Origin: Patescibacteria group bacterium
Lineage (GTDB): Bacteria > Patescibacteriota > Kazan-3B-28
NCBI GenBank assembly: GCA_028717565.1
Contig: JAQUNP010000002.1
Coordinates: 26,054 to 90,053 of the forward strand
Direction of reading: 5' to 3'
Length of the DNA: 64,000 nucleotides
Positions 3,024-59,210 of the stretch are shown piece after piece (position 1 is the stretch's first letter; each line of letters starts with the position of its first letter). The notes under the pieces are model-generated. The model searched no databases, was not told the origin of the DNA, and saw only the letters and a program-made list of their open reading frames with translations. The position numbers and the translations under genes were made by a program.

Positions 3024-3052
3024 TTGACACAAAAACAGGCCTCGTACATAAT
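3024..3052 (+). promoter_or_regulatory. Sigma70-like promoter upstream of the rplK leader
   Basis: TTGACA (3024-3029), 17-nt spacer, CATAAT (3047-3052). The first ATG of the leader lies 10 nt downstream. Confidence 0.6.
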
Positions 3053-3061
3053 ATCCCTTGT

Positions 3062-3208
3062 TATGCCCTGTAGAGAATTTTAGAATGATTATCTAGATTT
3101 TACTTTTTCAGGGACATAGCCATGTTAGTGAAAGGTTGTTATCAGTTTGGAATTGTCGTGAATTTACGATAATCAGGTAAAATTTTCTAAAATCTTCTAC
3201 AGGGTATG
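3062..3208 (+). promoter_or_regulatory. Structured leader element copy 1 (mini-ORF MPCREF plus long hairpin) ending in the rplK start codon
   Basis: The 5' arm TATGCCCTGTAGAGAATTTTAGAA pairs with the 3' arm TTCTAAAATCTTCTACAGGGTATG (about 24 bp, one A.C mismatch). The inner stem is TGATTATC/GATAATCA. The same termini occur at 21115-21254 and 24328-24468. Confidence 0.7.
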
Positions 3209-3634
3209 GCAAAGAAAGTTAGGACAGTTGTGAAGCTTCAGTGCGAAGCTGGTAAAGCTAACCCGGCTCCGCCGGTAGGTACGGCTTTGGGTCCCCATGG
3301 TATTCAAATCATGGATTTTTGTAACCAGTTTAATGATCGGACCAAAGAGCTAATGGGTAGTGTGATCCCAGCCGTCATTACTATTTACGAAGACAGATCT
3401 TTTGATTTTATTTTGAAGCAACCTCCAGCTGCTGAACTGATTAAGAAGGCAGCAGGGCTTTCCAAAGGTTCAGGTGTGCCGAATAAGGAGAAAGTGGGTA
3501 AGTTGACCAGGGCACAGATAAAAGAAATTGCTGAAAAAAAGATGCCCGATTTAAATGCTAATGATATTGAAGCCGCGATGAAAATTATTGAGGGTACGGC
3601 TAAGAATATGGGCGTGGAAATAAACGGGAAATAA
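3206..3634 (+). CDS. rplK: 50S ribosomal protein L11
   Basis: [29 protein letters not shown] is the canonical L11 N-terminus; 142 aa. Confidence 0.95.
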
Positions 3635-5519: not shown

Positions 5520-6188
5520 ATGACGACGGTCTCTGATCTTTTTAAGCGAGTAGTAGTGCTGGAGGGCATCGACGGTGCCGGTAAGGGCGCAGTGCTGGAG
5601 CGGTTTTGCCAAGCGTTGGAGGCACGAGGTATCCCCGTTTTGCGTACAGCAGAACCCACCAGTGGTGAGTGGGGCGTACGCATTCGACGGGCTTTAAACA
5701 AAGAGGATCGCGAGGTGCAGCGACCGCGGGACCCTTTGGAGTTTCAGGCCTGGTATGACCGAGACCGGCAGGAGCACATGCGCGACGTGGAAGAGTGGCT
5801 GCGAAAAAACCCGATAGGTGTCGTGGTTTCGGATCGCGGTGTCCCGAGTACCATAGCGTATGCTCTGGCTGAGGGAGCCGATGAAGAAGCGCTTCGCACA
5901 ATGGTTAAGTGGACGCCTCGTCCAGGGACCATTGTCTTTCTGCGGGTGCTGCCAGAGGTGGCAAGGCGCCGTCGGCAGGAGCGTGATCGGCCGCTAGAGG
6001 GTTTCGAAGAAGACACTTTTCAGGGGAAACTGGAAGCGGCCTACGGGCGGGTACCCGAGTTCGGTTTTCCTATGGAGTGGGTGGATAACAATGGCGATGG
6101 TAATCAGGCCATTGAATCTACGGTGAGACATATCCTGCACCTAGTTATGCCTCGACTGCGCGATGCTGGGGTTAGGGGCATCGCTTAA
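5520..6188 (+). CDS. tmk: Thymidylate kinase-like P-loop kinase (GC-rich)
   Basis: VVLEGIDGAGKG P-loop, SDRG (DR motif) and an Arg-rich lid RRRRQERDRP. Hand-counted 60-nt samples give 36/60 and 43/60 GC, against 29/60 in dut. Confidence 0.75.
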   Translation: MTTVSDLFKRVVVLEGIDGAGKGAVLERFCQALEARGIPVLRTAEPTSGEWGVRIRRALNKEDREVQRPRDPLEFQAWYDRDRQEHMRDVEEWLRKNPIGVVVSDRGVPSTIAYALAEGADEEALRTMVKWTPRPGTIVFLRVLPEVARRRRQERDRPLEGFEEDTFQGKLEAAYGRVPEFGFPMEWVDNNGDGNQAIESTVRHILHLVMPRLRDAGVRGIA

Positions 6189-6252
6189 GCTACTATTTCT
6201 TTTAAGAGCAATATCCCCGCATCGCCAGGCGGGGGTATTTCATTTAAAAGTG

Positions 6253-6281
6253 TTGACTAACTGGATATTAGTTTCTAGAAT
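6253..6281 (+). promoter_or_regulatory. Promoter of rplJ-rplL, followed by a ~110-nt leader
   Basis: TTGACT-17-TAGAAT. The leader contains hairpins (GTAGG..CCTAC, CTGGaagCCAG, CCGAG..CTCGG) and may be an L10-type autoregulatory leader. Confidence 0.55.
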
Positions 6282-6393
6282 ACTGACATATCCTTTTTTA
6301 AGACAGTAGGTACACAAATTAAATCCTACCGAGAAGGGACTGGAAGCCAGTTGGCTGCCTTACGGTCTGTCTCGGTGGAAACCGAGGTTTTTT

Positions 6394-6918
6394 ATGCCTA
6401 AAACAAGACAACAAAAAGAGCAGGAATTGAGCCGTTTAACCGGTCTGTTGAAAGACGCTGATTTTGGCGTTTTAACAGATTTTACCGGCTTGTCGATGGT
6501 GGATTTAGATAATTTTCGAGCGAAGGCTAGGGAAAAGGGTGTGCAATATACAGTAGTGAAGACATCACTCTTGGATTTGGCAGCTAAAAAGGTGGGTTTT
6601 AGTGGAGTGAATACTGTTAAGCAGGGCAAAAGCTACGCTTTGGCACACGGTGGCAAGGATGAGGTGTCTATTTCCAAACTAGTTAATGATTTTGCAAAAC
6701 AAAGTGAAGGCAGAGTAAACATCTACGCTGGATTGATTAATGGGGAGGTTGTGCCAGCTGGTATGGTGGTGCAGTTAGCTTCGCTGCCGTCCTATGAGGA
6801 ATTGATGGCGAAGGTGGTCGGCTCTATGAATGCACCTATCTCGAATTTTGTTTACTCGATTAACTACACTATGCAATCGTTTTATAACGTTGTGAAAGCT
6901 ATACAAGAATCTAAATAA
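6394..6918 (+). CDS. rplJ: 50S ribosomal protein L10
   Basis: 174 aa. Its position upstream of rplL and the overall L10-like sequence (TGLSMVDLDNFRAKARE) support the call. Confidence 0.9.
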   Translation: MPKTRQQKEQELSRLTGLLKDADFGVLTDFTGLSMVDLDNFRAKAREKGVQYTVVKTSLLDLAAKKVGFSGVNTVKQGKSYALAHGGKDEVSISKLVNDFAKQSEGRVNIYAGLINGEVVPAGMVVQLASLPSYEELMAKVVGSMNAPISNFVYSINYTMQSFYNVVKAIQESK

Positions 6919-6932
6919 TATAAGAGGTTATT

Positions 6933-7502
6933 ATGGCAGACGAACAAACTAACCAATCCCAAGGGGAGAACGAAGAGCAGCAAGCCCCTGAAGCTCAAGA
7001 AGAGCAACAGGTTGAAGTGGCTGCAGAAGCTCCGGCTGAGGAAACCAAGGCCGAAGAGGCGCCAGCGCCTGTAGCAGAGAAGCCGGTAGAAGAGAAAAAA
7101 GAAGTAGACACCTCTAAGTTATCCGAGACCGCTAATAAGGTTTTGGACATGGTGTCTGAAATGACTGTTTTGGAACTGGCCGAGCTTGTCAAAGTAATGG
7201 AAGACAAGTTTGGTGTGAGCGCCGCTCCGGCCGCTGTGGCTGTAGCTGGCGGAGCTGCAGCGGGTGGTGGGGACGCGCAAGCTGAAGAAAAGGATAGCTA
7301 CAATATCAATTTGGCTGACGCTGGCGGCAACAAGATTGCTGTCATCAAGGCCGTTCGCGAGATTACAGATTTGGGTCTGAAGGAGGCCAAGGATTTGGTA
7401 GAAGCAGCTCCGAAGATTGTGAGGGAAGGTGTAAAGAAAGAAGAAGCCGAAGAAATGAAGAAGAAGCTCGAAGAGGCCGGTGCTAAAGTAGAATTGGTCT
7501 AA
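6933..7502 (+). CDS. rplL: 50S ribosomal protein L7/L12 with a ~65-aa acidic N-terminal extension
   Basis: The C-terminal 125 aa are canonical ([19 protein letters not shown] ... [23 protein letters not shown]). AGAGG SD precedes the ATG at 6933. The extension is E/Q/A/P-rich. Confidence 0.9.
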
Positions 7503-9665: not shown

Positions 9666-12600
9666 ATGGATCCTGACCGGATCACCGATCAAGAGACGCC
9701 TACGTCTCAAGTAACACCTGAAGAGGTGGGTGTTGGCGAACCCCGTGAAAACGGTGGCGCTGAGGTAGAAGTCAGGGGGGGTAATGGTGGCGGACCGGAA
9801 GTAAAAACCAATGGTGAGCCCGAAGCTCGAACTATTGTAGTGGAGAATGTCGGGCCGGAGATTGCTAAAATCAAACAGGAGCTAGGGGAAGAAGGAGAAC
9901 CTCCGTCTGTAATGGAGCGGAGAAATATGCTCAAACTGATTATCGGTGTGGAGCAGGTAGATGAGACAAAAATCGAGCAAGCTGGACTGACTGAAAAGTG
10001 GCAACTGATACAAGAAGTGCTGGATTTAGTGACCGACAAGTATGAAACAAGAGAAAAGTTGAGGTTGCATACAAAGGTTTTTGACGTGGCGGTATCGAGA
10101 TTGCGGGACATTGTTGACCAATTCAGTCCTTGGACTCTGGCACACTCCACGCGCTTAACGGGCGAGGCGTACAAACTGGCTAAAGACATCTGGGAGTTTT
10201 CGGCTATATTTATGAAAAATCTTCGAGATGCCGGTTTGATTCATGATGTTGGTAAGGCGGCTACTCCGTTTCAGATTCTAGAAAAGCCGAGCCGGATGAA
10301 TGATGCCGAGTTCGAGCGAATGAAAAAACATCCAGATGATGGGCGTAAAATGGCGGCGCCGGTTTGTCGGCGCAATAGTAAAATTTGTGCTGGTTTTGGT
10401 CACCATGAAAAAGTTGACGGGAGTGGCTATCCCGATGGGCTGAAGGGCACGGAGATACCATTTATTGCTAGGTTGTTAGCATATACAGATGTTTTGGATG
10501 CAGTCAGTAGTGAAAGGCCGTACAAGCTACCTTTCTTACCAGAGTTTTCTCAGCAAGCGGTAATGGAGCCAGGCGTTGGAGTACACTTCGATCCGTATAT
10601 TGCAGCTGGTTCGAGGGATAGATATGAACGGAGAGGTTTTACATTTAAGCAGTACTTTAGACCAGAACGAACTGAACGACAGATTGAGAATGAGCTGGTT
10701 AACGTCAGCCCATTTACTCAATTTAAAAATGAGCGGGCTCGACAAAAAGATGTCAGAAGTATCGCCAAGATATTTAGGCCCCATGTTTCTAATAATGGTT
10801 CTAAGCGTAGTGCGGAAGAGATTATTGCCCGGCTGGATATGGCAGAACTGGTGGCGCTGAAAGCAAAGCTTGATCAGGAACAAACTGTACTGGGAGACGA
10901 GGAAGGGCGATTACAGGATATCTCTGTGGATGCTCTGATGATTTTGGTGAAGGCGATTGATGCACGTTACAGTATGCAAACCTTTAAGGATGAGAACCAA
11001 ACTGGCGAGGCAAAGGAACAGGACGGACAGGACGGCGAGTCAGATGAGGAGAGGATAGTTGGTCAGGCACGTACGGAGAATGTGATCCGCTATGCTTGGA
11101 TGTTGTTGCAGCACATGAAAAATCGTGGATACGAAGGCGCTGAAGATATAGATGAAAGACAGGTGATCATGGCGGCGATGTTCTGTGATGTTGGTGTGTT
11201 GGGTGTTGACCCTAAGAAAATTAGTTACCCCGGTTTTTTGGGTGTAACTGATATGAAAGCGATTCAAGCGATGCCTGCAATCGGTAATGCGCTGCTTGAG
11301 CCATTTATTAAGGACCCCGAGATTGCGCCTTGGTTTAATGGCGCGGAAGCTGGTGCGACGCAGGCCAACCTCTGGGCCGATGGTCGGCACGGTTACGGTA
11401 TCACGACTAATGGTGCTAAGGAGCCATCTTTACTTGGGAAGATAGTGGCTGTTGCTTACAAATATACTGCACTTAGATCAGACAATCCACGACGCGATCC
11501 ATTTGATCACAAGGCGGCGCTAGAAACGATGCTGCGCGGCACAGCCAAGGGCGAATTTGATGCAGATGTGATGCAGTATTTTGTAGAGGTAGATGCTTTG
11601 GATATGCTGCGAGTGTATCAGCCCCGGCCAGAAGTGGTGGGAGATATCAAGGAGGAGTTTAAGGGAAATGAAGTAAAAGTCGTGCCTGGCTCACAGCTGG
11701 CTTTGGAGTTAGCTAGCAAGGCAGGGGAGATTTACCGGGCCACGTCATCTGATGAAAAATTAAAATTGTGTATGGAGGGGGCGAAATTGTGTCAAGAACA
11801 TAGTTTGTACACTCACATGGAGAGATTTTTGGAGATGGAAGAACGGGAATTCATCCAACGCCATGACTTGAACGGCATTGAATCCTGCTATCAATATGAT
11901 TTAGTTCAGTCAGAAGCTCAGCGGTGGAGCTTTGTGACAAACATGCTGGAATTAATAAGAGACCCCCGCATACCAGCTGAGACCGCCTACCGGAATATGC
12001 GCAAGGCAGTCGGCTCGGCAGAGGGATTGATGAAGGACTTTGCGGAAATGGGACAGGTATTAAGCGATGAAGTGGCCAATAAGTTTAGGGATGCTCTGAT
12101 AGAGGGTAACCAAATTGTTTATAATCTGCTGATGCAAAAGTATCGGGAAAGTATGCTGGCCAAGGACGCTGAACTGGCGCTCAATACGTTTGAGATGCTC
12201 ACGATTGTAGGTGCCGAACTGGGTCTAAGTGGTGAGGGGGATCAAAGACAGATAGAGATGCTGCAGGCAGAGGTTAACGATAAGATGGTGATTGATGATA
12301 TTGAAAATGATATTAAAGAAGCTCAACTGGCGATAGCTGAACAAAACCCTTGGGACGCGGAGCACTACATTGCAGTGGCGAATAAAAAACTAGAAGACAA
12401 AGTCACTTGTCCTCAATCGCAAGAGGTGCGGGATGCCTTAGTTGAAAACATTCAGGCAGTCAAGAAGGGGATGTGTGCATGTGGTTGTGAGACGGGCTTG
12501 GCTAGAATGAGGGAGAACAGAGACCAGGGCTTAGTGTTTAGTAACCTAGAGCTGCAGAAGAAGGTTTTAGAATGGGGTGGCTCGGCTGAAGAGACACAAG

Positions 12601-14305: not shown

Positions 14306-15655
14306 TTATTCTAATCCAGTTTCCTCTGAGCCACCCAAACCGCTTCGTAGCGGGCTGGCACCAGCGCCAGCTTCATCTTTGGGTTTACCAGTCACGAAGA
14401 GGTCAACAATCAGCTGCCCAATTTTTTTGAAGGCGCTGTCCTTTTTGATTACGGTGCCATCTTCCAAAGTAGTGGTAGAGCCGACAAAGATCTCTTTCAC
14501 GTCTTTTACTACCTGGCTCATGCCGAGAGTAACTTTCGTCACGGCGCGTTGGAAGGTGCTAGCGGTAGTGGTATTAAGAATGGTTTGAACCTGCTCTTCG
14601 GAAACGTAAGAACTTTGGTTTTGGGTCTGGGCGGTATTTTTGATTTGAGTTTGAGCAAAGGCATCAAGGGCTTCGCTAACAGATTCTTGAGTGGAGGTTT
14701 TGTCTGCCTCGGCTGGAGGAATGTACTGATACCAGTCTGGTTCGGTCTCATCCTCTGGTGCACCAGGGTAGTCCTCGTCTTGTTTTTGAGGAGTGGTAGC
14801 AGTCGGGGCGGCAATTGTCTTAGGCGCTTCCTCGACGCTAATAGTAGCCACAGCGCTAGCGCCGTTGGCTTTGACCTGTACCTGAACGACACCCTTTTTG
14901 ACACCAGTAATTTCACCTGTGGTTTTGTTGATGGTGGCGTTATCACTACCCGAGACAATGCTCCAGGTTTTAGAAACATTCTGGATTTCCTTGCCAGTGC
15001 TGTCCAAGGCGATAACGGAGAAGGAGCGGGTTTGGCCGATGGCTACCTTGGCAGTAGTTGGAACCAAATAAAGAGTAGCGACTGATGGGGGGGTGTAGCT
15101 GGAGTCGCTGCCAGCATAATTGACAAGCTTACTAACAGTGTCGCCGCCATGAATGGCGATATTGATAGTAGAGGCATTACTCAAGGCAATAGGACCTAAG
15201 GGGGAGTTGACGGCGATACCGTTAACGGTAGCACCCGTAAAAGAACCGTGCAGGTAGAAAGTGCCTGACACGGGTTGGTCTAGAACAATACTCAGGGTGT
15301 AGGTTTGGCCAAGAGTTTGGCCTTTGGTCCCAGCGGAGGTTTGAGAGAGGTTGCTGGGGGACCAGCCAGAACGGACGGAATACAGTCCGCTAGCTTGGCC
15401 GGCAGCGAAGTTTAAGCCGCCGTATTCAACACCCTTGATGAAAAAGCCCTCTTCACCCCAGGCAGCACTCCAAGAGTTGGCAACTTGGACGTCGCCAGGT
15501 TCCAGGGCAGTGCTGGCATAAGAGAAGCCGACTACAAATCCTAACATTAAAAGCAACGCGAGCGACATTTCTAGCTCACGCTTTATGAAATCTACAACTT
15601 TGTGCCACAAGGACACCTTCCCCCGCTTTTTGGAAACTTTCTTTCTATTTTTCAT
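14306..15655 (-). CDS. Membrane-anchored surface protein with a Big_2-like Ig domain
   Basis: N-terminal KKRGK plus a TM helix. The Big_2-like segment is AKVAIGQTRSFSVIALDSTGKEIQNVSKTWSIVSGSDNATINKTTGEITGVKKGVVQVQV. The C-terminal half is low-complexity. Confidence 0.65.
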   Translation of the reverse strand: MKNRKKVSKKRGKVSLWHKVVDFIKRELEMSLALLLMLGFVVGFSYASTALEPGDVQVANSWSAAWGEEGFFIKGVEYGGLNFAAGQASGLYSVRSGWSPSNLSQTSAGTKGQTLGQTYTLSIVLDQPVSGTFYLHGSFTGATVNGIAVNSPLGPIALSNASTINIAIHGGDTVSKLVNYAGSDSSYTPPSVATLYLVPTTAKVAIGQTRSFSVIALDSTGKEIQNVSKTWSIVSGSDNATINKTTGEITGVKKGVVQVQVKANGASAVATISVEEAPKTIAAPTATTPQKQDEDYPGAPEDETEPDWYQYIPPAEADKTSTQESVSEALDAFAQTQIKNTAQTQNQSSYVSEEQVQTILNTTTASTFQRAVTKVTLGMSQVVKDVKEIFVGSTTTLEDGTVIKKDSAFKKIGQLIVDLFVTGKPKDEAGAGASPLRSGLGGSEETGLE

Positions 15656-15789
15656 GGCAGACCCTTTTGTTTTTATTTTCCCGCTCTATTTTGAGCTTGT
15701 TTATATTCTACCAAAAAAAATGACATAAGTCAAGCGGGAATGTGCTCAAGAGATTGATTTATAGATGGGAGTTGTGGATAATACAAATT

Positions 15790-16863
15790 ATGTTGTACGC
15801 AGTTATCGTTGCCGGTGGGCAGGGTACACGTTTGTGGCCTGCGAGTCGCAAGGTTTCTCCCAAACAAGTACGACCCTTTGATGGGGAGAAGACCATGCTG
15901 CAAAAGACCTACGACAGGGTTTGCCAAGTAGTTAGCCCTGAGCGGGTGCTTTTGGTGACTAACCATAAATATATAGAAGAGGTAAGAAAGCAAATCCCTC
16001 AGTTGATGGATGGGCAAATTATTATTGAGCCCAGTCCCAGAAACACGGCGCCAGCGGTAGGTTTGGCGGCGGCAGTTTTAGCCAAGCGCGATCCGGAGGC
16101 GGTGATGCTTAATGTCTGGGCGGATCACTATATAAAACATGAGGATGTCTACAAAGAAAAAGTTTTGCTAGCGGAGCAGCTCTTGGAGGCCAACCCACAA
16201 TATCTGATAGATATTGTAGCGAAGCCGGAGTATCCGGCGACAGGATATGGATATCTAGAGGCAGGTGCGCAGATTGCTGACGAGTTATGGTTGGCCAAGC
16301 GATTTGTCGAGAAGCCAGATACCGAAACAGCGCAGCAGTATCTGGAGGCAGGTAATTATTACTGGAACACAGCCATTTTTGTATGGAAGGTCAGAACCCT
16401 GCTTGATATGTACGCTCAGTTCAAGCCCGAGATGCACACAAAATTGATGCTTTTGCAGCAGGCCTGGGATACCGAGAACCAAGAGGAGGCGATGCTAAAG
16501 ATTTTTCCATACATGGAGTCCATTTCGGTTGACTACGCTATTTTTGAAAAAGCGACTAATATCGCTTTGATTCCTGCCAGTTTGGGCTGGAGAGATGTAG
16601 GTAGTTGGGACGCGATGTATGACGTCTTAAAAAATGGGGATGTCGATGAGGTGGTGACTCAAGGTAAAGTGATCAAGATTGATACAAAAAACGCTTTGAT
16701 TTTTAATGAAAATAAGGATAAGCTGGTGGCTGTAGTAGGCATGGAAGATGTGACTGTGGTGGACACTCCAGATGCCCTACTGGTGATTAGGAAGAGCAAG
16801 GATCAGGATGTAAAGGAGGTCATTAAAGTTTTGGAAGCAACGGGGGATGTGAAGCATTTATAG
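15790..16863 (+). CDS. manC: Mannose-1-phosphate guanylyltransferase (NTP-transferase family)
   Basis: MLYAVIVAGGQGTRLWPASR is the nucleotidyltransferase N-terminus. The ATG at 15790 lies 6-7 nt after a GATAAT/ATAATA -10, so the mRNA may be leaderless. Confidence 0.8.
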   Translation: MLYAVIVAGGQGTRLWPASRKVSPKQVRPFDGEKTMLQKTYDRVCQVVSPERVLLVTNHKYIEEVRKQIPQLMDGQIIIEPSPRNTAPAVGLAAAVLAKRDPEAVMLNVWADHYIKHEDVYKEKVLLAEQLLEANPQYLIDIVAKPEYPATGYGYLEAGAQIADELWLAKRFVEKPDTETAQQYLEAGNYYWNTAIFVWKVRTLLDMYAQFKPEMHTKLMLLQQAWDTENQEEAMLKIFPYMESISVDYAIFEKATNIALIPASLGWRDVGSWDAMYDVLKNGDVDEVVTQGKVIKIDTKNALIFNENKDKLVAVVGMEDVTVVDTPDALLVIRKSKDQDVKEVIKVLEATGDVKHL

Positions 16864-19338: not shown

Positions 19339-19372
19339 CAACGGCTCAAAATTTGAGCCGTTGATTTTTGGA
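19339..19372 (+). terminator. R2 (short form): intrinsic terminator after secF
   Basis: CAACGGCTC aaaattt GAGCCGTTG followed by ATTTTTGG. The same 9-bp stem occurs at 43963 and 59152. Confidence 0.7.
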
Positions 19373-19386
19373 GGATATACTAAGTT

Positions 19387-21114: not shown

Positions 21115-21254
21115 TATGCCCCGTAGAGAATTTTAGAATGATTGCTGAAGATGTACTCTTAGACGGGCATGGGGGTGTAGAGACGGAGGTTTTTATAGCT
21201 GTGCATGAGAATGACAATCAAATAAAATTTTTCTAAAATCTTCTACAGGGTATG
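21115..21254 (+). promoter_or_regulatory. Structured leader element copy 2 (mini-ORF MPRREF) ending in the hisS start codon
   Basis: Same termini as copy 1 (TATGCCCCGTAGAGAATTTTAGAA ... TTCTAAAATCTTCTACAGGGTATG). Inner stem TGATTG/CAATCA. TATAAT at 21099-21104. Confidence 0.7.
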
Positions 21255-23966: not shown

Positions 23967-24296
23967 GTGGAGGATAGTATTTTTTTCAAATTTGCGACTG
24001 GGGAATTAAGACCGGATACGGTCAGATATGAGGACGAGGAGCTGCTGGCGTTTGATGATATTCATCCAGACGCTCCTATCCATATCTTGGTCATCCCGAA
24101 AAAGCCGATTCAAAGTGTGGCCGACATGACACAGGAGGACGCTGCAATAGTGGGCAAGATGATATTGCTAACTAAGAAATTAGCGGAGGAGATGGGGGTA
24201 GCCGAATCTGGCTATAAGGTGACTTTTAACGTCAGGGAGGGGGGAGGGCAGATTATTCCCTATCTACACCTGCATTTGCTGGCAAATAAACCTTGA
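23967..24296 (+). CDS. HIT-family nucleotide hydrolase
   Basis: GTG start. The C-terminus carries the HLHLHLL histidine triad; 109 aa. Confidence 0.85.
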   Translation: MEDSIFFKFATGELRPDTVRYEDEELLAFDDIHPDAPIHILVIPKKPIQSVADMTQEDAAIVGKMILLTKKLAEEMGVAESGYKVTFNVREGGGQIIPYLHLHLLANKP

Positions 24297-24321
24297 TTAA
24301 TACATAAGAATCCGCTATAGT
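24293..24321 (+). promoter_or_regulatory. Promoter upstream of the rpsU leader
   Basis: TTGATT-17-TATAGT. The first ATG of the leader is 7 nt downstream (near-leaderless geometry). Confidence 0.6.
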
Positions 24322-24327
24322 TCTACC

Positions 24328-24468
24328 TATGCCCTGTAGAGAATTTTAGAATAATCAGCTGGAATGCCCCGCTTTTATTGCTAAATACTTTACGAACGGG
24401 CTGCAATGGGCCGGTGGGTTTGACGGCTGATCACAAATAACATTTTCTAAAATCTTCTAAAGGGTATG
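24328..24468 (+). promoter_or_regulatory. Structured leader element copy 3 (mini-ORF MPCREF) ending in the rpsU start codon
   Basis: TATGCCCTGTAGAGAATTTTAGAA ... TTCTAAAATCTTCTAAAGGGTATG. Inner stem ATCAGC/GCTGAT. Confidence 0.7.
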
Positions 24469-24687: not shown

Positions 24688-25125
24688 ATGCTAAAAGAAC
24701 AAGTCCAATTAGACCTGACCGCAGCCCAAAAGGCTCGTGAAGAGCAGAAGGTCTCGACTTTGCGTATGCTAGTAGCAGCTTTTAATAATATGGAGATTGC
24801 AAAACGAGGCAAAGCTGATGTTAGTGAAGATGATTATATGACAGTAGTGAAGCAAGAAGCCAAAAAGCGCAAGGAGGCGATTGAGGCCTACAAGGTGGCA
24901 GGTCGTGCCGAATCGCAGGCCTTGGAGGAAGCAGAACTAGAGATTTTGGCAGCGTACTTACCAGAACAAATGAGTGAGGATGAGCTAAAGAGCATTGTAG
25001 ATGCAGTGGTGGAAGAAAAGGGTATCGACAACATGGGGCTGATCATCGGTGAGGTAATGAAGCGAGCGCAGGGGCGGGCTGACGGAGGAGTTGTTTCAAA
25101 ATTAGTAAGAGAAAAGCTCGGGTAA
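24688..25125 (+). CDS. GatB/YqeY domain protein
   Basis: LTAAQKAREEQKVSTLRML..A....EI and its conserved position after rpsU. Confidence 0.8.
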   Translation: MLKEQVQLDLTAAQKAREEQKVSTLRMLVAAFNNMEIAKRGKADVSEDDYMTVVKQEAKKRKEAIEAYKVAGRAESQALEEAELEILAAYLPEQMSEDELKSIVDAVVEEKGIDNMGLIIGEVMKRAQGRADGGVVSKLVREKLG

Positions 25126-25583
25126 TGGCAACTTGTTGGGTTGGTTTTGATGGGTTTTCTTTATCTGGCGTGGACGAAGAGTTCGTCCGCTTTGTTTTTA
25201 ATGTGACTGTGACTATGGCCAAGATGGATGAAGCTGCGGAGGTTGGCATAGTGTTATGCGACGACGACTATATGCAAAAATTGAATAAACAATATCGGAA
25301 AAAGGATTACGTCCCCAATGTGCTGTCATTTGTTTACGGAGAGATGCAAGATGACGAGTTTTTGGGCGACGATAAAACTTATTTAGGGGACATCTTTGTG
25401 AGCAAAAGCCAAGTGGAGGCTGACGCAAAAAAACTGGGGGTGTCTGTCAAGGACGAATTTGCACGTCTGTTTGTTCACGGACTTTTGCATCTAAGGGGGC
25501 TGGGGCACGAAAATCCAAGAGAGGCAGACAAAATGGAAGCGCTGGAGGACAAAATCTTGGCACAAATTAGGGAGGCGGAGTAA
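25125..25583 (+). CDS. ybeY: Endoribonuclease YbeY
   Basis: Zinc motif HGLLHLRGLGHE; TAATG overlap with the upstream gene. Confidence 0.85.
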   Translation: MATCWVGFDGFSLSGVDEEFVRFVFNVTVTMAKMDEAAEVGIVLCDDDYMQKLNKQYRKKDYVPNVLSFVYGEMQDDEFLGDDKTYLGDIFVSKSQVEADAKKLGVSVKDEFARLFVHGLLHLRGLGHENPREADKMEALEDKILAQIREAE

Positions 25584-27071: not shown

Positions 27072-28169
27072 ATGAACAGACGGAAATCCCAAAGTTCGTC
27101 TTCGATCGAGAACTTCAACGAAGAAGATGTCTTTGCCAGGATTAAGGTTGTTGGTGTGGGCGGTTCCGGAACCCACGCGGTAAATCGAATGATCCAATCA
27201 CGGATCAAAGGGGTAGAATTTATCGCGATAAACACTGACGCACAGGATTTGCATTATTGCGATGCGCCTGTTAGGGTACACATTGGCCAGACCGTGACAC
27301 GCGGTCTTGGCGCCGGCTCGGACCCTGAGCTGGGAAAGAAAGCCGCAGAGGAAAACAAAGAAGAGATTTATAACGCACTGAAAGATGCGGACATGGTCTT
27401 TATCACCTGCGGTATGGGTGGTGGCACTGGTACAGGAGCGGCCCCGATTGTGGCGGAGATCGCCAGAGAATTGGGAGCACTGACTGTAGCGGTGGTAACT
27501 AAGCCATTCTCGTTTGAGGGTCTGCGTCGGAAAAAGGTTGGTGATGAGGGGTTGGCAGAACTGCAACCTAAGGTGGATACCTTAATCACCATTCCTAACG
27601 ACCGACTACTTCAAGTCATTGATAAGAAAACTTCGCTCTTTGATGCTTTCTCGGTAGTGGATGACGTGCTGCGTCAGGGCGTACAGGGTATTTCTGATTT
27701 GATTACGATGCATGGTATGATCAACGTCGACTTTGCGGATGTTAAGACCATCATGCAAAGTGCGGGTAGCGCTTTGATGGGTATCGGACGCGGGACTGGT
27801 GAAAACCGGACCGTGGAAGCTGCTCGGATGGCCGTTGACTCTCCGTTATTGGAGATGTCGATTGATGGTGCCAAAGGTATTTTGTTCAACATTACCGGTG
27901 GCCCAGACATGAGCATGTATGAGATCGATGAAGCGGCTCGGATTATTACCGAAGCAGCCGATCAGGATGCCAACATTATCTTCGGTGCAGTGATTGATGA
28001 AGCAATGCAGGGCGAAGTGAAAATTACGGTAATCGCTACCGGCTTTGATGAGGGTTATGCTACTCGTCGGAAGAGCGGGGCGGCAACCAAAAAACAACAA
28101 GAAGAGGAAGACGAGGGCGATACCAACGATGTGGATGTGCCCGCCTTCTTGCGCAGAAAAATTAAATAG
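27072..28169 (+). CDS. ftsZ: Cell division protein FtsZ
   Basis: AGGAGG SD. Motifs [23 protein letters not shown] and the C-terminal peptide DVPAFLRRK. Confidence 0.95.
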
Positions 28170-42311: not shown

Positions 42312-43097
42312 ATGAAGTTGTTGGATGGTAAAAAGATAGCGGCTGATTGGCAAAAAGCTCTAAATAAAAAAGTGGCTGGCAAATGTCTGGCGGCTGTGAT
42401 GGTGGGTGACAACCCAGCGTCGGTTTTGTATTTGAAGAAGAAAGCGGACATGGCGAAGAAACTTGGTGTGACATTCACTCTGCATTCACTACCAGCCAAC
42501 ACCACTACGGAGAAGGTGGTGGCGCTAGTTAGGAAGCTGAACACGAGTCAACGAGTCAATGGCATTATTGTGCAGTTGCCTCTACCGAGTAAGATGAATG
42601 AAGCAAAAATATTGGAGGCCATCGCGCCTAGTAAGGATGTGGATGGTTTAACCGATGCGAGTTTGACGGAGGATGGGGTTTTGCCAGCGACAGCCGCAGG
42701 CATCGTACGTTTGCTGGAAAGCTATTGGATTCCTTTAACCTGCCAGAGTGTGGCGCTGATAGGGTTTACCCGGTTGCTGAACGTGGCCTTGGCCGTCTAT
42801 CTGTCTAGTCGGGGCAATGAAGTGGTAGTGGTGCAAAAAGGCACTCAGGATATGGCAGAGCTCAAACGGGCCGACATAATTATTACGGCGGCTGGTCGTC
42901 CCGGTTTGGTGTTGGGCAAGCATGTCGGGCGGGGTGCGGTGGTGGTAGATGCTGGGATTACCCGCCGAGGCAAGACGGTAGTGGGGGACGTAGATTTTGA
43001 GAGTGTAAAAAAACAAGCTGCTTATATCACTCCAGTCCCGGGTGGAGTGGGGCCTATGACAGTGATGGCCCTGTTTGCAAATTTAGCGGAACTTTGA
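42312..43097 (+). CDS. folD: Bifunctional methylenetetrahydrofolate dehydrogenase/cyclohydrolase
   Basis: VGDNPAS..Y...K, GIIVQLPLP and TPVPGGVGPMT. Confidence 0.88.
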   Translation: MKLLDGKKIAADWQKALNKKVAGKCLAAVMVGDNPASVLYLKKKADMAKKLGVTFTLHSLPANTTTEKVVALVRKLNTSQRVNGIIVQLPLPSKMNEAKILEAIAPSKDVDGLTDASLTEDGVLPATAAGIVRLLESYWIPLTCQSVALIGFTRLLNVALAVYLSSRGNEVVVVQKGTQDMAELKRADIIITAAGRPGLVLGKHVGRGAVVVDAGITRRGKTVVGDVDFESVKKQAAYITPVPGGVGPMTVMALFANLAEL

Positions 43098-43702: not shown

Positions 43703-43733
43703 TTCACAAACGCTAGCTGGCGTTTGATCCAGC

Positions 43734-43937
43734 CCACCTTTTTGCTTGTCCAAAAAGGTGGAGAAAAAGACACCCCGGTCGAGATTGGTCAGAGCCAAAG
43801 GAATTTGGTTCTGTTTGGCAAAGCAGCAAACTCTCCCTCTCCAGTTTGTGCCAAACTGGAGAGGGATCAGACATGCCTTGGCCAAAAACCAAACCAAATT
43901 CAAATTTGGCTTAGCTGACAATCTCTCCAACGGGGGA
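43734..43937. repeat. R1b: 11-bp-stem hairpin plus ~165-nt long imperfect hairpin
   Basis: CCACCTTTTTG cttgtc CAAAAAGGTGG, then a long hairpin with core GCAAACTC-[14-bp apical hairpin CCCTCTCCAGTTTG/CAAACTGGAGAGGG]-TCAGACATGC. Outside the apex it is nearly identical to 49879-50086. Confidence 0.75.
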
Positions 43938-43957
43938 GTATCATCTCTTCTTGTAGG

Positions 43958-44020
43958 ATTTTCAACGGCTCAAAATCCGCCGGCTGGCGGAGAGCCGTTG
44001 AGTTTTGGGCTTCCAGAGCC
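43958..44020 (+). repeat. R2 (long form): nested terminator-like hairpin plus conserved tail
   Basis: CAACGGCTC aaaa TCCGCC ggct GGCGGA GAGCCGTTG agTTTTGGGCTTCCAGAGC. About 60 of 63 nt are identical to 59145-59210 by eye. Confidence 0.7.
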
Positions 44021-44441: not shown

Positions 44442-45911
44442 ATGAAAGAATCTTTGAATCAGATTATCGGGTTTCGACTAGATAAGCTAAAAAAGCTGCG
44501 TGAAAAAGGTATCGATCCGTATCCAGCTAAATCATCTAGAAGTGCAGAGATGGCGGAGTTTTTGGATAAATTTGCGTCTTTCAAGAGAAGTAAAAAAACG
44601 GTGAGTTTGACGGGGCGTTTGATGAGCAAGCGTGAATTTGGGGGTTTGGCTTTCGGAGTTTTAAAAGATTTTTCAGGTGAAGTACAAGTAGTATTCAAAA
44701 AAGATTTGTTGAAAAATGCTTATGCCGATCTGGAACTGATTGACGTTGGTGATATTTTGCAGGTGTCGGGGCAAGCATTCGTGACTAAAAAGGGCGAGAA
44801 ATCGTGTTTGGTAAAAAAAATGACCTTGCTGGCCAAGTCCTTGCGCCCCCTACCGGAAAAGTGGCATGGGCTGACAGACCAGGAGACACGTTTCAGACAA
44901 AGGTATTTGGATATCTTGTTTAATGACGAGGTGAAGCGGCGTTTTATTTTGCGTCACCAGTTAGTGCAAGCCATCCGAAAGTTTTTGATTGGCCGAGGAT
45001 TTATCGAGGTGGATACACCAGCTCTCCAGCCCTTGCCGGGTGGAGCTTTGGCGACTCCGTTTAAAACTCACTACGAGGCACTAGATACAGACGTGTATTT
45101 ACGAATTGCACCAGAACTGTATTTGAAACGGCTCATGGTGGGTGGTTTTGAAAAGGTGTTTGAGTTTGCCAGAGTGTTTAGAAATGAGGGGGTTTCCACG
45201 CAACACCTGCAGGATTTCACTATGCTGGAGTTTTACCAAGCATATACTACGCACGAAGATTTGATGAGGATGACAGAGCTGATGCTGGGGCAGGTTATCA
45301 AGCAAGTGCTTGGAACTACTAAGGTAAAATTCGGAACCAAAGATATTAATTTTAAAACTCCCTGGCCGAAAAAGACCTTTAGAGAGTTGATTAAAAAAGA
45401 AACCGGCCTTGATATTGACCAGTATCCAACGGCGCAGGATCTGACGAAAGCGATTGGAGCCAAAAAGATTAAGCTGACCTTTAAGGGCAAAGCGGGACGA
45501 GGCAAACTGATTGACGAGTTATATAAGGAAACTGTGCGGCCAAAATTGGTAGATCCTGTATTTTTGGTTGACCATCCATTGGATCTCTCGCCACTGGCAA
45601 AGAAGAAAACGGACGATCCAACAAAAGTACAACGGTTTCAACTAGTCATAGCTGGAATGGAAGTGGTGAATGCTTTTAGTGAGCTCAACGATCCGATTGA
45701 TCAAAAAGAGCGCTTTATGGAGCAGGCCCGGCAGAAAAAAGCGGGGGATAAGGACGCTCACTCTATGGATGATGACTTTGTCAAAACCTTGGAATACGGT
45801 ATGCCGCCAACGGCTGGTTGGGGGATGGGCATTGAGCGGCTGTTGATGCTTTTGACTAATGCCGATTCGGCCAGAGAAGCTGTGCTGTTCCCATTTGTAA
45901 AAGATAAGTAG
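44442..45911 (+). CDS. lysS: Lysine--tRNA ligase (class II)
   Basis: FIEVDTP, FRNEG.S..H..DFTMLEFYQAY and GMPPTAGWGMGIERL. TGcTATAAT plus 6 nt precedes the ATG. Confidence 0.93.
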   Translation: MKESLNQIIGFRLDKLKKLREKGIDPYPAKSSRSAEMAEFLDKFASFKRSKKTVSLTGRLMSKREFGGLAFGVLKDFSGEVQVVFKKDLLKNAYADLELIDVGDILQVSGQAFVTKKGEKSCLVKKMTLLAKSLRPLPEKWHGLTDQETRFRQRYLDILFNDEVKRRFILRHQLVQAIRKFLIGRGFIEVDTPALQPLPGGALATPFKTHYEALDTDVYLRIAPELYLKRLMVGGFEKVFEFARVFRNEGVSTQHLQDFTMLEFYQAYTTHEDLMRMTELMLGQVIKQVLGTTKVKFGTKDINFKTPWPKKTFRELIKKETGLDIDQYPTAQDLTKAIGAKKIKLTFKGKAGRGKLIDELYKETVRPKLVDPVFLVDHPLDLSPLAKKKTDDPTKVQRFQLVIAGMEVVNAFSELNDPIDQKERFMEQARQKKAGDKDAHSMDDDFVKTLEYGMPPTAGWGMGIERLLMLLTNADSAREAVLFPFVKDK

Positions 45912-49822: not shown

Positions 49823-49878
49823 TGTCTGCCACCATTTGTGTCAGTAGATGGGAAGCGCCACATCGCGCTTCACCGATG

Positions 49879-50086
49879 CCACCTTTTTGCTTGTCCAAAA
49901 AGGTGGGGAAAAAGACACCCCGGTCGAGATTAGTCAGAGCCAAAGGATTTTGGTTCTGTTTGGCAAAGTAGCAAACTCTTCCGGTAGCTATTTTTAATAT
50001 ACAAGGAGACCGGAATCAGACATGCCTTTGCCAAAAACTAAACCAAATTCAGCTTTGGCTTAGCTGACAATCTCTCCAACGGGGGA
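49879..50086. repeat. R1c: near-identical copy of R1b with a different apical hairpin
   Basis: I count about 8 substitutions over ~170 aligned flank nt vs R1b. The apex is replaced by TTCCGGT ..23 nt.. ACCGGAA. The core GCAAACTC / TCAGACATGC is retained. Confidence 0.75.
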
Positions 50087-50429
50087 TTAATTCAGCTCCA
50101 ACGCTCGTAAAAATAAGGAGGAAACATTATAAATGTTATAAAGCCACGAAAGTGGTGTTTTGGCAAGTTTTACACCTATGTTTTTTTGAGGTTGGCAGAA
50201 GACAGGGGACAAATTTGCCACTTTGTCGCTCTGGGAGCGCAAAAGTACTTGACAAACTTGTGTATATGCGCTAAATTGTTCCCAGTTTATTGTTCTCTAC
50301 AATTTGTGCTAGTTAAAAGGGCACAAGAGAGTCAAAAAGCATTTTACAATTTATTCAAGAAAACAAAAGCATACCGTTTGGGGGGATGTTGGTTTTTCTT
50401 GTAAATTGGTCGATGGTTGAGCATTCGTG

Positions 50430-52309: not shown

Positions 52310-52412
52310 GACAGGAGCCCCGAAGCTTAAAACACTTCGGGAGCTCCTGTCCCCAACCTTGGTCACCAATTATCGCTCCCCCCAGGTGATAATCTGATGA
52401 CCAAGGTTGGGG
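52310..52412 (+). terminator. Two consecutive long hairpins after the PKD gene
   Basis: GACAGGAGCCCCGAAG ..9.. CTTCGGGAGCTCCTGTC, then CCCCAACCTTGGTCA ..32.. TGACCAAGGTTGGGG (15 bp perfect). There is no U-run. Confidence 0.45.
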
Positions 52413-52445
52413 ACACACACATATATAACTCAAGGGGTAAAGATT

Positions 52446-54653
52446 ATGAAGAATTTGCTGAAGGCCATTGGCCGAAAGACCTACTTTAGTTTAAAAAGAT
52501 TCGCTCGTGCGATTCGGTCTTTGAATATATTAACTTTTAGCGCTGTCTTTTTGGCTAGCGTTTTGGTGCCGTCTGCTGTTGTGGCTGAGGGCGACTTTGT
52601 ACGGGCGACGGTTACACCGTCTAGCTCAACTATTGAGCTGGGCCAGAGCAAGACCTTTTCAGTTATCACCAAGCTCAATGGTGTGACTACTACTGCTGAT
52701 AGCATCAATTGGTTTGTGAACAGTGCCCCGCAAAGTGGCACCACTTCAATGACCTACACGCCGGCTACGACAGGTGATTATCAGATACGGGCGAATGTTA
52801 CCAAGAATGGTATTGCCACTAGCTCCCAAGCCACTTTAAAAGTGACTGCGGCCGCGGATGATGATACTGATGAGCCAGAAGACGATGATGGCGATACCAG
52901 CGACCCGATTTATGTTCGAGCGGTAGTTACCCCGACTAGCTCAACAATTACTCAAGGTGAAAGCAAGACCTTTAGCGTGGTTGTAAAGAAGAACGGTAAT
53001 GTGACTGATGCTGATAGCATCAACTGGTTTGTGGATGGCGGAGCTCAAGCTAGCTACCAAAACCTCGTTCACATGACCTTGTCCCCAAGTGCTGGAACTT
53101 ACAGTATTCGAGTAAACGTGGTGGAAGAGGGCACGCCGGCTGTTAGTTATGCGACTTTAAAGGTTCTGCCAGCTAGCGACGACCCAGATCCCGACCCTGA
53201 CCCGGATCCTGATCCGGTTGTGGATGACTACTTAAGAGCGGTGATTACTCCAACTAGCTCAACTATTACTCAAGGTGAAACCAAGACCTTCAATTTGATT
53301 AGCAAGTTAAATGGCCTCACTACTACTCCAGACACAATTAAGTGGTTTGTAGACAACGATGAGCAAACCAGCTTCAGCGGCAAGAGCTATCTGACTCTGT
53401 CTCCAGCTAATGTGGGCACATACTACATTAGAGCCCTGGTGACCAAGACCGGTGCGAATGTGGCTCAATCCTATGCCACGTTGATTGTGAAAGCTGGTAC
53501 TACTCCTCCTGAGCCGCCAACCGAGGATTTCGTGAGAGCGGTGATTACTCCAACCAGCTCAACGGTGACGGTGGGTACATCCAAAACCTTTAATCTAATT
53601 ACTAAATTAAATGGCTATACCCACACAGCCGATACGATTCGCTGGTATGTGGATGGTGCGTTGCAAGCTAGTGCCAATGACCATACCTACATTACCTTGA
53701 ATCGTCCGGTGGGCACCTACAGCATTAATGCCAAGGCCTGGATCAACAGTGCGATGGGTCAAGACACGGCGACCTTGATCGTAAAAGATGTGGTGATTAC
53801 TGAACCGGATGACATTGAAGTAGTGATTATTCCGGATTTGAGAAGTGTGGGAACTTATGAAGAGACCAGTTACCGCGCTGTAGTTTACGACGAAAGCGGT
53901 GCGGACGTGACTGACGAGACCACGCTTGACTGGAGCATTTTAGATGGCAACGCTCTGATTTTGAGCGAAAACCATGACGATTTGCGGGTTCAGTCACGTG
54001 GCAACACTGGTACATTCGAAGACATCTACGTCTATGCTAGCCGCAATGGCAAGCACGACAGTGATAAGGCCTACTTGCAGGTGACTAGCGGATACACTCC
54101 GCCAACGCCAACTTGCGAGTACTACCTAACCGCGACTATGCATGGTGTGATTGAGGACGGCAGCTCTCCAAGTGCTGGTGATATTATTAAGTACACCGTC
54201 AAGGTGAACAACTACCGTCCATGCACACTGCATAATGTTAATCTAAAGATTGCTGTGCCACCTGCCCACACAACCTTTGTTGATACCAACTCAGCTTATG
54301 GCACACCGTATCTGTCTGGTGGCTACATCTACTGGAATGCGGGTACCTTGGTCAGCGGTCAAGAAAAAACGATGACTTTCCGAGTGAAGATCAACAGTGG
54401 CGTTCCGAAGGAAGGTTGGTATATCACGGCTTATGGTAGTGCTGGTGCGAGCGAGATCTCTACCTTCAACATCCAATCCAATACCATCTATGTACCGGGT
54501 ACAACCACTCCGATTACTCCGGATCTACCAAAGACAGGTGTGGACTGGATCGTGTTGCTTTTGATCACTTTGTCTTCACTGGGCTTAGCTACATTGACCT
54601 ATGCTGGGATGTATTCCCGCAAGCTGCAACGCGAAAGAATAGGTTACTTATAA
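52446..54653 (+). CDS. LPXTG-anchored surface protein with four tandem ~95-aa Ig-like repeats and a DUF11/CARDB-like domain
   Basis: AAGGGG SD and a signal/TM segment. Repeats begin (D/I/Y/F)(F/Y/L)VRA.(V/I)TP(S/T)SSTI. Linkers are acidic or PD-repeat. C-terminus: LPKTG (54525-54539), a hydrophobic helix, then RKLQRER. Confidence 0.8.
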   Translation: MKNLLKAIGRKTYFSLKRFARAIRSLNILTFSAVFLASVLVPSAVVAEGDFVRATVTPSSSTIELGQSKTFSVITKLNGVTTTADSINWFVNSAPQSGTTSMTYTPATTGDYQIRANVTKNGIATSSQATLKVTAAADDDTDEPEDDDGDTSDPIYVRAVVTPTSSTITQGESKTFSVVVKKNGNVTDADSINWFVDGGAQASYQNLVHMTLSPSAGTYSIRVNVVEEGTPAVSYATLKVLPASDDPDPDPDPDPDPVVDDYLRAVITPTSSTITQGETKTFNLISKLNGLTTTPDTIKWFVDNDEQTSFSGKSYLTLSPANVGTYYIRALVTKTGANVAQSYATLIVKAGTTPPEPPTEDFVRAVITPTSSTVTVGTSKTFNLITKLNGYTHTADTIRWYVDGALQASANDHTYITLNRPVGTYSINAKAWINSAMGQDTATLIVKDVVITEPDDIEVVIIPDLRSVGTYEETSYRAVVYDESGADVTDETTLDWSILDGNALILSENHDDLRVQSRGNTGTFEDIYVYASRNGKHDSDKAYLQVTSGYTPPTPTCEYYLTATMHGVIEDGSSPSAGDIIKYTVKVNNYRPCTLHNVNLKIAVPPAHTTFVDTNSAYGTPYLSGGYIYWNAGTLVSGQEKTMTFRVKINSGVPKEGWYITAYGSAGASEISTFNIQSNTIYVPGTTTPITPDLPKTGVDWIVLLLITLSSLGLATLTYAGMYSRKLQRERIGYL

Positions 54654-59147: not shown

Positions 59148-59210
59148 TTGGCAACGGCTCAAAATCCGCCAGCTGGCGGAGAGCCGTTGAATTTTGGGCT
59201 TCCAGAGCTG
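59145..59210 (+). repeat. R2 (long form), second copy
   Basis: CAACGGCTC aaaa TCCGCC agct GGCGGA GAGCCGTTG aaTTTTGGGCTTCCAGAGC. Confidence 0.7.

Follow-up and report, generated by a model that had tools for sequence, protein, structure and literature searches.

A stretch of 64,000 nucleotides (nt) of DNA from a member of the Patescibacteria, candidate-division Kazan lineage, referred to throughout as the window, holds three hairpin elements of ~135 nt, each with a sigma-70-like promoter on one side and the ATG of rplK, hisS, or rpsU on the other. Homologs of HisRS, L11, and FtsA assign the window to this lineage. The element in front of rpsU, designated copy 3, is the main subject of this study, and it was compared with the other two copies and with loci of relatives, which bear codes running from L003 to L028. 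The features at the rpsU locus, all on the forward strand, are as follows.

24293-24298, forward: -35 hexamer TTGATT of the native rpsU promoter, read from the sequence and unchanged in the element-free loci L003 and L027
24316-24321, forward: -10 hexamer TATAGT, read from the sequence, spaced 17 nt from the -35 hexamer and aligning with TATTAT or TATATT of relatives
24328-24331, forward: left target-site duplication TATG; the same 4-mer flanks both ends of the element, and relatives have a single TATG
24329-24349, forward: mini open reading frame (mini-ORF) MPCREF*, ATG CCC TGT AGA GAA TTT TAG, in which the orphaned ATG runs into the 5' repeat and the stop lies within that repeat
24332-24351, forward: 5' terminal inverted repeat CCCTGTAGAGAATTTTAGAA, from arm searches and alignment
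24352-24444, forward: variable interior of 93 nt, not homologous to the interiors of copies 1 and 2
24445-24464, forward: 3' terminal inverted repeat TTCTAAAATCTTCTAAAGGG, from arm searches and alignment
24465-24468, forward: right target-site duplication TATG, of which 24466-24468 is the rpsU start codon
24466-24669, forward: rpsU (S21), from the ORF and from Pfam on orthologs
24688-25125, forward: yqeY, downstream of rpsU
25125-25583, forward: ybeY, downstream of yqeY

The promoter described in the original prediction is present in the sequence in all its parts, with TTGATT and TATAGT separated by 17 nt and with 7 nt (tctacct) between TATAGT and the mini-ORF ATG at 24329. Pfam agrees with the downstream units named there, encoding L11-L1, HisRS, and S21-YqeY-YbeY. 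A look-up of the exact sequence of the window S21 protein returned no record. The remaining two copies are located as follows.

3062-3208, forward: copy 1, composed of TATG, the element (3066-3204), and TATG; promoter TTGACA at 3024-3029 and CATAAT at 3047-3052; rplK ATG at 3206
21115-21254, forward: copy 2, composed of TATG, the element (21119-21250), and TATG; -10 TATATAAT upstream; hisS ATG at 21252

Arms, interiors, and folding of the window copies

The 24-nt 5' arm is found three times in the window, at 3063, 21116, and 24329 with 0-1 mismatch, against an expectation of 0 in shuffled sequence, which bears out the three leader copies first proposed. The 3' arm family is found at 3178-3208, 21224-21254, and 24438-24468. 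The terminal inverted repeats are 20 nt in length (CCCYGTAGAGAATTTTAGAA ... TTCTAAAATCTTCTACRGGG), and each arm carries TAGA-N6-TAGA direct repeats one helical turn apart. Alignment of the three copies revealed the arms as common and almost nothing else. The interiors of paralogous copies are unrelated, are without significant additional structure (z -0.2 to -2.7), and range in GC content from 0.22 to 0.58 across loci while the arms remain constant. Element length ranges from 102 to 149 nt, and the longest reading frame entering an element is ~30 codons, so that there is no coding capacity for a transposase.

The two arms of an element pair in 94.7% of the 247 cells compared, as against no more than 57.5% when the partner is slid, and three pairs are changed on both sides. 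Each window copy is predicted to fold into one long hairpin with a free energy (dG) of -43 to -48 kcal/mol (z -4.1 to -6.6). The predicted repeat stem is ~23 bp, made up of 13 bp, a 1x1 interruption, and 9 bp, with one G.U pair and one A-C mismatch as its flaws. At the base of the predicted hairpin AUGCCC pairs with GGGUAU, which places both start codons inside the stem. Copy 3 carries A at 24460 in place of the consensus C (TCTAAAGGG), opposite G24336, just as had been noted in the original prediction. The inner stem of copy 3, formed by 24354-24361 and 24424-24431 (ATCAGCTG/CGGCTGAT), has the two compensated differences from copy 1 (GATTATC/GATAATC) that had also been pointed out, but these are not the only ones, as one further difference is uncompensated. 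The compensated changes arise because the element is a palindrome, and give no indication of a conserved aptamer.

No Rfam family was found at gathering thresholds, and permissive settings gave only generic long-hairpin microRNA-precursor matches far below threshold; those for window positions 3058-3214 were confined to the plant microRNA-precursor families MIR2606 and MIR4371 and are not meaningful. A generic scan of the whole window for further hairpins abutting start codons returned only the known copies.

Empty sites and target-site duplications

The rpsU and rplK sites are empty in relatives whose compared proteins (HisRS, L11, FtsA) are 83-91% identical, and at these sites the same promoter directly abuts a single TATG. 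The element-free rpsU sequence is TTGATT-17-TATTAT-N9-ATG in L003/L026, from a relative whose HisRS is 89% identical, and TTGATT-17-TATATT-N10-ATG in L027, where FtsA is 83% identical. For rplK the corresponding sequence is TTGACA-17-CATAAT-N10-ATG in L018 (L11 89% identical), and L019 is also element-free. When the rpsU loci were aligned, copy 3 stood out as a clean 137-nt insertion beside the single TATG. A relative of 73% identity has, upstream of rpsU (L023 16615-16640), the sequence 'ttctaccTATGCCCaatAGGGCAT', which matches 13-14 nt of the left junction of copy 3 and is followed by a 6-bp hairpin. This fragment may be a deletion remnant, reflecting older occupancy of the site, though closer relatives are cleanly empty there.

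Further copies of the window type (type A) were retrieved by scanning metagenome contigs for the 5' arm with an exact 20-mer required. The flanking 4-mers match in all of 13 type-A copies at nine independent loci, with L025 matching at three of four positions. The duplicated 4-mers lie outside the inverted repeats, the window copies all reading TATG, CCC...GGG, TATG. At the nine independent loci the duplication is TATG in five cases, TGGA in two, and CATA and TTGA in one each. Several copies may occur within one stretch, with three in the 64-kb window, two in 8.8 kb of L011, and two in 3.5 kb of L008. The GAGAA arm is on the promoter side at eight of the nine loci.

Beyond the window, TATG-flanked copies precede a TrxB-like gene (L009) and the gene of an Ig-domain surface protein (L008). 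The CATA-flanked copy, CATA being the reverse complement of TATG, lies at the start of a leftward membrane-protein gene in L008, and its distal arm is decayed. TGGA-flanked copies are found at the start of the phosphomannomutase gene (L010, L013) and of lysS (L011). The TTGA-flanked copy in L011 has as its duplication the first four bases of the -35 hexamer TTGACA in the greA promoter. Pfam and protein labels at element-bearing genes include phosphomannomutase, Pyr_redox_2, Big_13, LysRS, and GreA. A wider arm search, of the sort proposed in the original prediction, added one more translation gene, lysS, but it likewise added functionally unrelated genes, the outcome that the original prediction had named as refuting it; relative frequencies could not be compared.

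A variant family with ends (T)CCCGTTAGAAAT and with TGAA or TCAA as the duplication is present in more distant relatives. Its copies are located at the hisS start in L005, where the duplication is TGAA, at the ftsA start in L023 and in L028, and at the TTGA of another -35 box in L023; a lone 3' end of this family abuts the secD ATG in L005. At the ftsA start of L028 (9720-10000) two variant elements are tandem or nested, with TGAA at the borders of each, and ftsA there starts with a GTG supplied by the last G of the repeat.

Orthologs of two window copies were identified, one at rplK in L015 and the other at hisS in L025. The hisS copy of the closest relative (L003 1686-1825) has identical arms and an interior unrelated to those of window 21119-21250 and L025 837-973, which suggests that the element was replaced, or inserted again independently, at the same TATG.

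Start codons at the element borders

In 11 of 12 copies the left ATG follows the end of a canonical -10 hexamer at a distance of 6-11 nt. The native spacing from -10 to ATG at empty sites falls within the same short geometry, with rpsU starting 7-10 nt after its -10. The TGnTATAAT-N6-ATG arrangement that had been reported for other genes of the window is found as TGcTATAAT-N6-ATG at 44442, and TAAAAT-N6-ATG occurs natively at 42312; genes led by a Shine-Dalgarno (SD) sequence, such as ftsZ at 27072, also occur in the window. Because relatives without the element carry the same promoter right before the rpsU ATG, the mini-ORF ATG (24329-24331, inside the left TATG) is best read as the orphaned original start of rpsU. 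By this comparison rpsU is predicted to be natively leaderless or nearly so, with the left ATG its own original start, and the suggestion that the mini-ORF ATG lies no more than a few nt from the predicted transcript 5' end, if not right at it, agrees with the arrangement in the element-free relatives.

The duplication leaves one ATG at the old 5'-proximal site, where it opens a 6-codon ORF, and a second ATG at the base of the 3' repeat, from which rpsU is read in frame. Insertions of the TGGA/TGAA type cut after the A of ATG. The left ORF is then in another frame and runs for 10-30 codons, and a new gene start, GTG or ATG, takes its G or A from the final base of the 3' repeat. Translation from the new start gives a complete phosphomannomutase of 455 aa in L010 and is open to the end of the locus in L013 and in L011 lysS. 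A conserved mini-ORF peptide was ruled out, since TATG-type and TGGA-type copies do not agree in reading frame or in sequence.

With few exceptions, an intact copy lies across a start codon and has a start codon on each of its sides. Of the copies that depart from this pattern, two border a -35 box on its upstream side, and the third is the L023 ftsA copy, its left ATG having decayed. Gene starts account for 15 of the 58 TATG/CATA sites in the window at which insertion would not disrupt an ORF, but all six TATG-type loci are at starts; by our own calculation the chance of this is ~0.26^6, or roughly 3e-4, and the five TGRA-type loci add to it. The left ATG is kept in every intact copy at a gene start, the independent comparisons being too few to call this selection.

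Gene calls in L005 were found to extend upstream into the element, with HisRS (10001-11368, P0003) given as 455 instead of ~425 aa and SecD called at 5849-7186. The element is a cause of systematic start-site mis-annotation in these genomes.

The orthologous copies allow change since insertion to be followed. The window and L015 copies at rplK are identical at 39 of 40 arm positions and 63 of 96 interior positions, and the window and L025 copies at hisS at 39 of 40 and 51 of 92, respectively. Since L015 and L025 were retrieved via their proteins and not via the arms, the arm comparison is unbiased by retrieval. Were the arms to change at the rate of the interior, the probability of one or fewer arm changes would be ~1e-6 for rplK and ~2e-9 for hisS by our binomial calculation. 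The promoter hexamers of rplK, where the insertion is ancestral to the window and L015, are identical at 12 of 12 positions while most of the 17-nt spacer differs. Orthologous hisS copies have in common a C at arm position 4 that is absent from paralogs in the same genome, and such locus-specific inherited variants disfavor gene conversion as the cause of arm conservation. Conservation of ~97% in the arms versus 55-66% in the interiors points to selection in place, and the arrangement of promoter, orphan ATG, stem, and gene ATG appears to be maintained by selection.

Nature of the element and expression of the downstream genes

The small non-coding size, terminal inverted repeats, 4-nt duplications that vary with the site, dispersed copies, and empty orthologous sites are those of MITEs, or miniature inverted-repeat transposable elements. 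The attributes of a curated cis-regulatory RNA, namely an Rfam match, a conserved interior, or a stable tie to an orthologous gene, were not found. Overall, we consider it probable that copy 3 is a MITE that inserted in the TATG at the start of a near-leaderless rpsU and duplicated the start codon.

Among known mobile elements, a possible lead to a cognate autonomous insertion sequence is the IS1380 family, which has CC ends and duplications of 4-5 bp. REPINs, which are REP doublets mobilized by RAYT transposases, consist of two conserved inverted sequences of ~20-25 nt and a less conserved spacer, form one long hairpin, and persist for long in genomes; mobility of the RAYT/IS200 type produces no target-site duplication. 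The Kazan element is similar to REPINs in its conserved ends and free spacer, but it always has a variable 4-nt duplication. A REPIN/RAYT origin was rejected on that ground, and no RAYT was found in the scanned proteins, in a search that was not exhaustive. An integron attC-like site was rejected as well, since RYYYAAC/GTTRRRY cores are lacking and the flanking repeats vary in sequence.

Correia elements duplicate TA. These elements (CREE/NEMIS) of Neisseria are ~100-155 bp, non-coding, bounded by ~26-bp terminal inverted repeats, and typically located just upstream of genes; they are co-transcribed and form long hairpins in mRNA, may bear terminal promoters, and serve RNase III as a target of binding or cleavage (PMC2649163; PMC10969869). 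The Kazan element is like them in size, lack of coding capacity, terminal inverted repeats, position upstream of genes, and long hairpin. A Correia element was nonetheless rejected, as the duplications here are of 4 nt rather than TA, the repeat sequence is unrelated, and there is no counterpart to the conserved Correia core with its integration host factor site; the host also differs, and Correia elements are not reported to split start codons. Further likeness exists to ERIC, RUP, BOX, MITEAba12, and the Rickettsia palindromic elements, which share small size, inverted repeats, duplications, dispersal, presence/absence polymorphism, and effects on the expression of neighbors, and of which the Rickettsia elements insert in frame within ORFs (PMC10969869). 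Insertion at leaderless genes with duplication of the start codon has not been described for these five, nor have in-place purifying selection on the repeats and interiors that all differ. The terms 'start codon' and 'leaderless' are both absent from a 2024 review devoted to prokaryotic MITEs (PMC10969869), and our literature search returned no start-codon-targeting MITE and no work on leaderless translation or MITEs in Patescibacteria or the candidate phyla radiation. The element family belongs to the Patescibacteria, candidate-division Kazan lineage, and judged by duplication length, end sequence, and the absence of a conserved core, it is a new MITE family, distinct from all named ones. Its unusual traits are the overlap, in almost every case, with a start codon such that a start codon stands on either side, the conservation of native promoters, and the conservation of arms over drifting interiors.

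We propose tentatively that the native promoter would still start transcription after the insertion, and that a ribosome would load in leaderless mode on the 5'-terminal AUG and translate into the 5' repeat. By unzipping the stem, this mini-ORF ribosome would make the AU-rich 3' repeat and the real start available for initiation or re-initiation. Survivors would be only those insertions that keep a start codon on both sides, and the model would explain why only insertions with an upstream ATG are seen. We estimate that this scheme, taken whole, is somewhat more apt to be wrong than right. Systems pairing an upstream ORF with a stem, such as structure-melting coupling and the ribosome shunt of cauliflower mosaic virus, have a 5'-proximal short ORF, a very stable stem, and the real start at its far foot. 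They provide a mechanistic analogy only, in that the Kazan mini-ORF ends inside the stem and not before it, and loading would be leaderless rather than cap- or SD-dependent. The fuller notion of a mobile "leader cassette", which would target or survive only at leaderless starts, have its stem opened by ribosomes from the orphan AUG, and have its repeats kept by the host or by a repeat-binding factor, is possible but on balance doubtful.

Other means of reaching the gene start were rejected. Translational bypass of the T4 gene 60 type, from UUU-UAG to the UUU of the 3' arm, would have no landing frame open into the gene, and the gene frame has a TAA 18 nt upstream. Cleavage of the MazF type at an ACA before the AUG is at odds with the lack of conservation of ACA, the variants being CTACGGGG, CTATAGGG, CTAAAGGG, and CTTCAGGG.

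Several observations weigh against a start-codon-duplicating MITE and the mode of expression proposed for its host genes. Neither an autonomous element nor a transposase having the same ends turned up in the window, in the loci of relatives, or in exact 20-mer scans of genome, metagenome, and viral contigs. Among 185,579 species genomes, scanned for the exact arm, there were only two chance matches, neither with a partner arm; the scan of viral contigs gave 0 matches, and Pfam detected no transposase in the window or L011. A MITE family that had amplified recently would not typically have interiors that differ among the copies of a single genome, as these do, and in-place conservation of the repeats is unexpected for a purely selfish relic. 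The 'tctaccTATGCCC..GGGCAT' sequence upstream of rpsU in L023 complicates a simple history of recent insertion, and ftsA-type sites are not obviously leaderless. In constraint folding with the first 36 nt held open, the mean probability of being unpaired at the rpsU start rose only from 0.23 to 0.46, and the starts of copies 1 and 2 were hardly freed. A distance of ~115 nt separates the mini-ORF stop from the ATG of the gene, and an SD is lacking in the 3' repeat. Finally, the orientation bias of eight in nine is unexplained by any RNA-level model, because either orientation gives nearly the same stem and the same 6-codon mini-ORF.

A mobile element might also be accommodated by processing, the repeat stem of a read-through transcript being cut by RNase III or another double-strand nuclease to give an mRNA with a short leader. 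The near-perfect stem (dG -43 to -48 kcal/mol) would suit such an enzyme, the retained native promoters imply that the element is transcribed, and the arms are conserved in place, as would be expected if a half-broken stem blocked the start codon yet escaped processing. For Correia elements, moreover, it is documented that RNase III acts on the inverted repeats (PMC2649163, PMC10969869). Processing, however, would not explain why every copy retains the left ATG, nor why insertions cluster on the start codon and not elsewhere in the stretch that runs from the -10 to the ATG, and a cut inside the stem would leave a leader of ~10 nt without SD, not a leaderless mRNA. Mismatches are tolerated in several copies, and the lack of an RNase III signature in the 266 kb of sequence examined is uninformative, this being a small part of any genome. 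We regard such processing as unlikely. An outward promoter within the mobile element is a less likely route still. The 3' repeat of copy 3 contains a -10-like TAAAAT (24448-24453) 12 nt upstream of the rpsU ATG, and from it a near-leaderless transcript could be re-created (TAAAAT-N12-ATG, or N10-GTG elsewhere), a short -10-to-ATG distance being kept only by insertions at the start codon. Every copy has TAAAAT at a distance of 10-12 nt from the start, the native gene at 42312 has TAAAAT-N6-ATG, native -10-to-ATG distances at the element loci are 6-11 nt, a promoter scan reports ATGACA-17-TAAAAT in copy 2, and outward promoters are common in MITEs (PMC10969869). Yet the native hexamers upstream are still under selection, needlessly so if the element had a sufficient promoter of its own. 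The corresponding -35 sites lie within the variable interior, where copies 1 and 3 offer only poor matches; transcripts are predicted to have a leader of ~5 nt, and a spacing of N12 falls beyond those used natively. Nor would an outward promoter account for why the 20-nt arms are conserved over their full length, or why the left ATG is.

Recognition of the DNA itself could underlie conservation of the arms if the element were a domesticated operator, spreading a site at which a DNA-binding protein, possibly a transposase-derived repressor, recognizes the repeats just past the transcription start. Sequence conservation does go beyond what pairing needs, as hisS copies inherit a C-A mismatch at position 4 that is not compensated, the other positions being fixed, and both the TAGA-N6-TAGA repeats with their helical-turn spacing and the location of the elements, from +1 to +140 relative to promoters or else bordering the -35, would be in keeping with an operator. 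No candidate protein was found, however, and the same observations fit recognition at the RNA level equally well, so that we give an operator only a slight chance. The original prediction had instead inferred a dedicated cis-regulatory RNA leader, consisting of mini-ORF and stem, that co-regulates translation-apparatus genes as a small regulon. The three window copies and the lysS copy of L011 do precede translation genes, the arms and left ATG are conserved in place, and the start codon is sequestered in the predicted fold. The regulon is not supported by the comparison with relatives, as orthologous sites are empty where proteins are 83-91% identical and the target-site duplications vary in sequence. 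Nor is a common function evident downstream, given the copies at phosphomannomutase, TrxB-like, surface-protein, and membrane-protein genes, the copy that precedes a -35 box, and those of the variant family at ftsA and secD. The interior is not conserved and corresponds to no Rfam family. We therefore judge a regulon leader to be very improbable. The mobile-element explanation, which we prefer, replaces this tempting annotation.

The window and its relatives also contain repeats that are distinct from the element. A second, unrelated intergenic family of ~230-320 nt with several GC-rich hairpins is located in the window at 43705-44020, 49853-50089, and 59152-59208, with a similar hairpin near 19340-19380; the window copies are 88-96% identical and have no Rfam match, and in relatives the family is found at L003 10200-10560, L023 9717-9900, and L028 12500-12900. 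The intergenic regions of L023 are several hundred nt long and crowded with other small repeats. Between the HIT gene and rpsU of that locus (14872-15906 and 16018-16530) lies an IS110-family transposase gene (PF02371) beside 138-nt direct repeats spaced 375 nt apart. At 52603-53590 of the window, four tandem repeats of ~315 nt lie inside an ORF of 748 aa (52407-54653), which probably encodes a repeated-domain surface protein.

The presence of the element in these positions raises the question of how rplK, hisS, and rpsU are expressed from a start that lacks an SD and lies at the foot of a predicted 23-bp stem, ~135 nt from the 5' end. If it is true that insertion targets transcription start sites, the element would be unusual among bacterial transposons. 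Should the leader cassette prove to be real, rplK, hisS, rpsU, lysS, and ftsA would be dependent on leaderless initiation at the mini-ORF.

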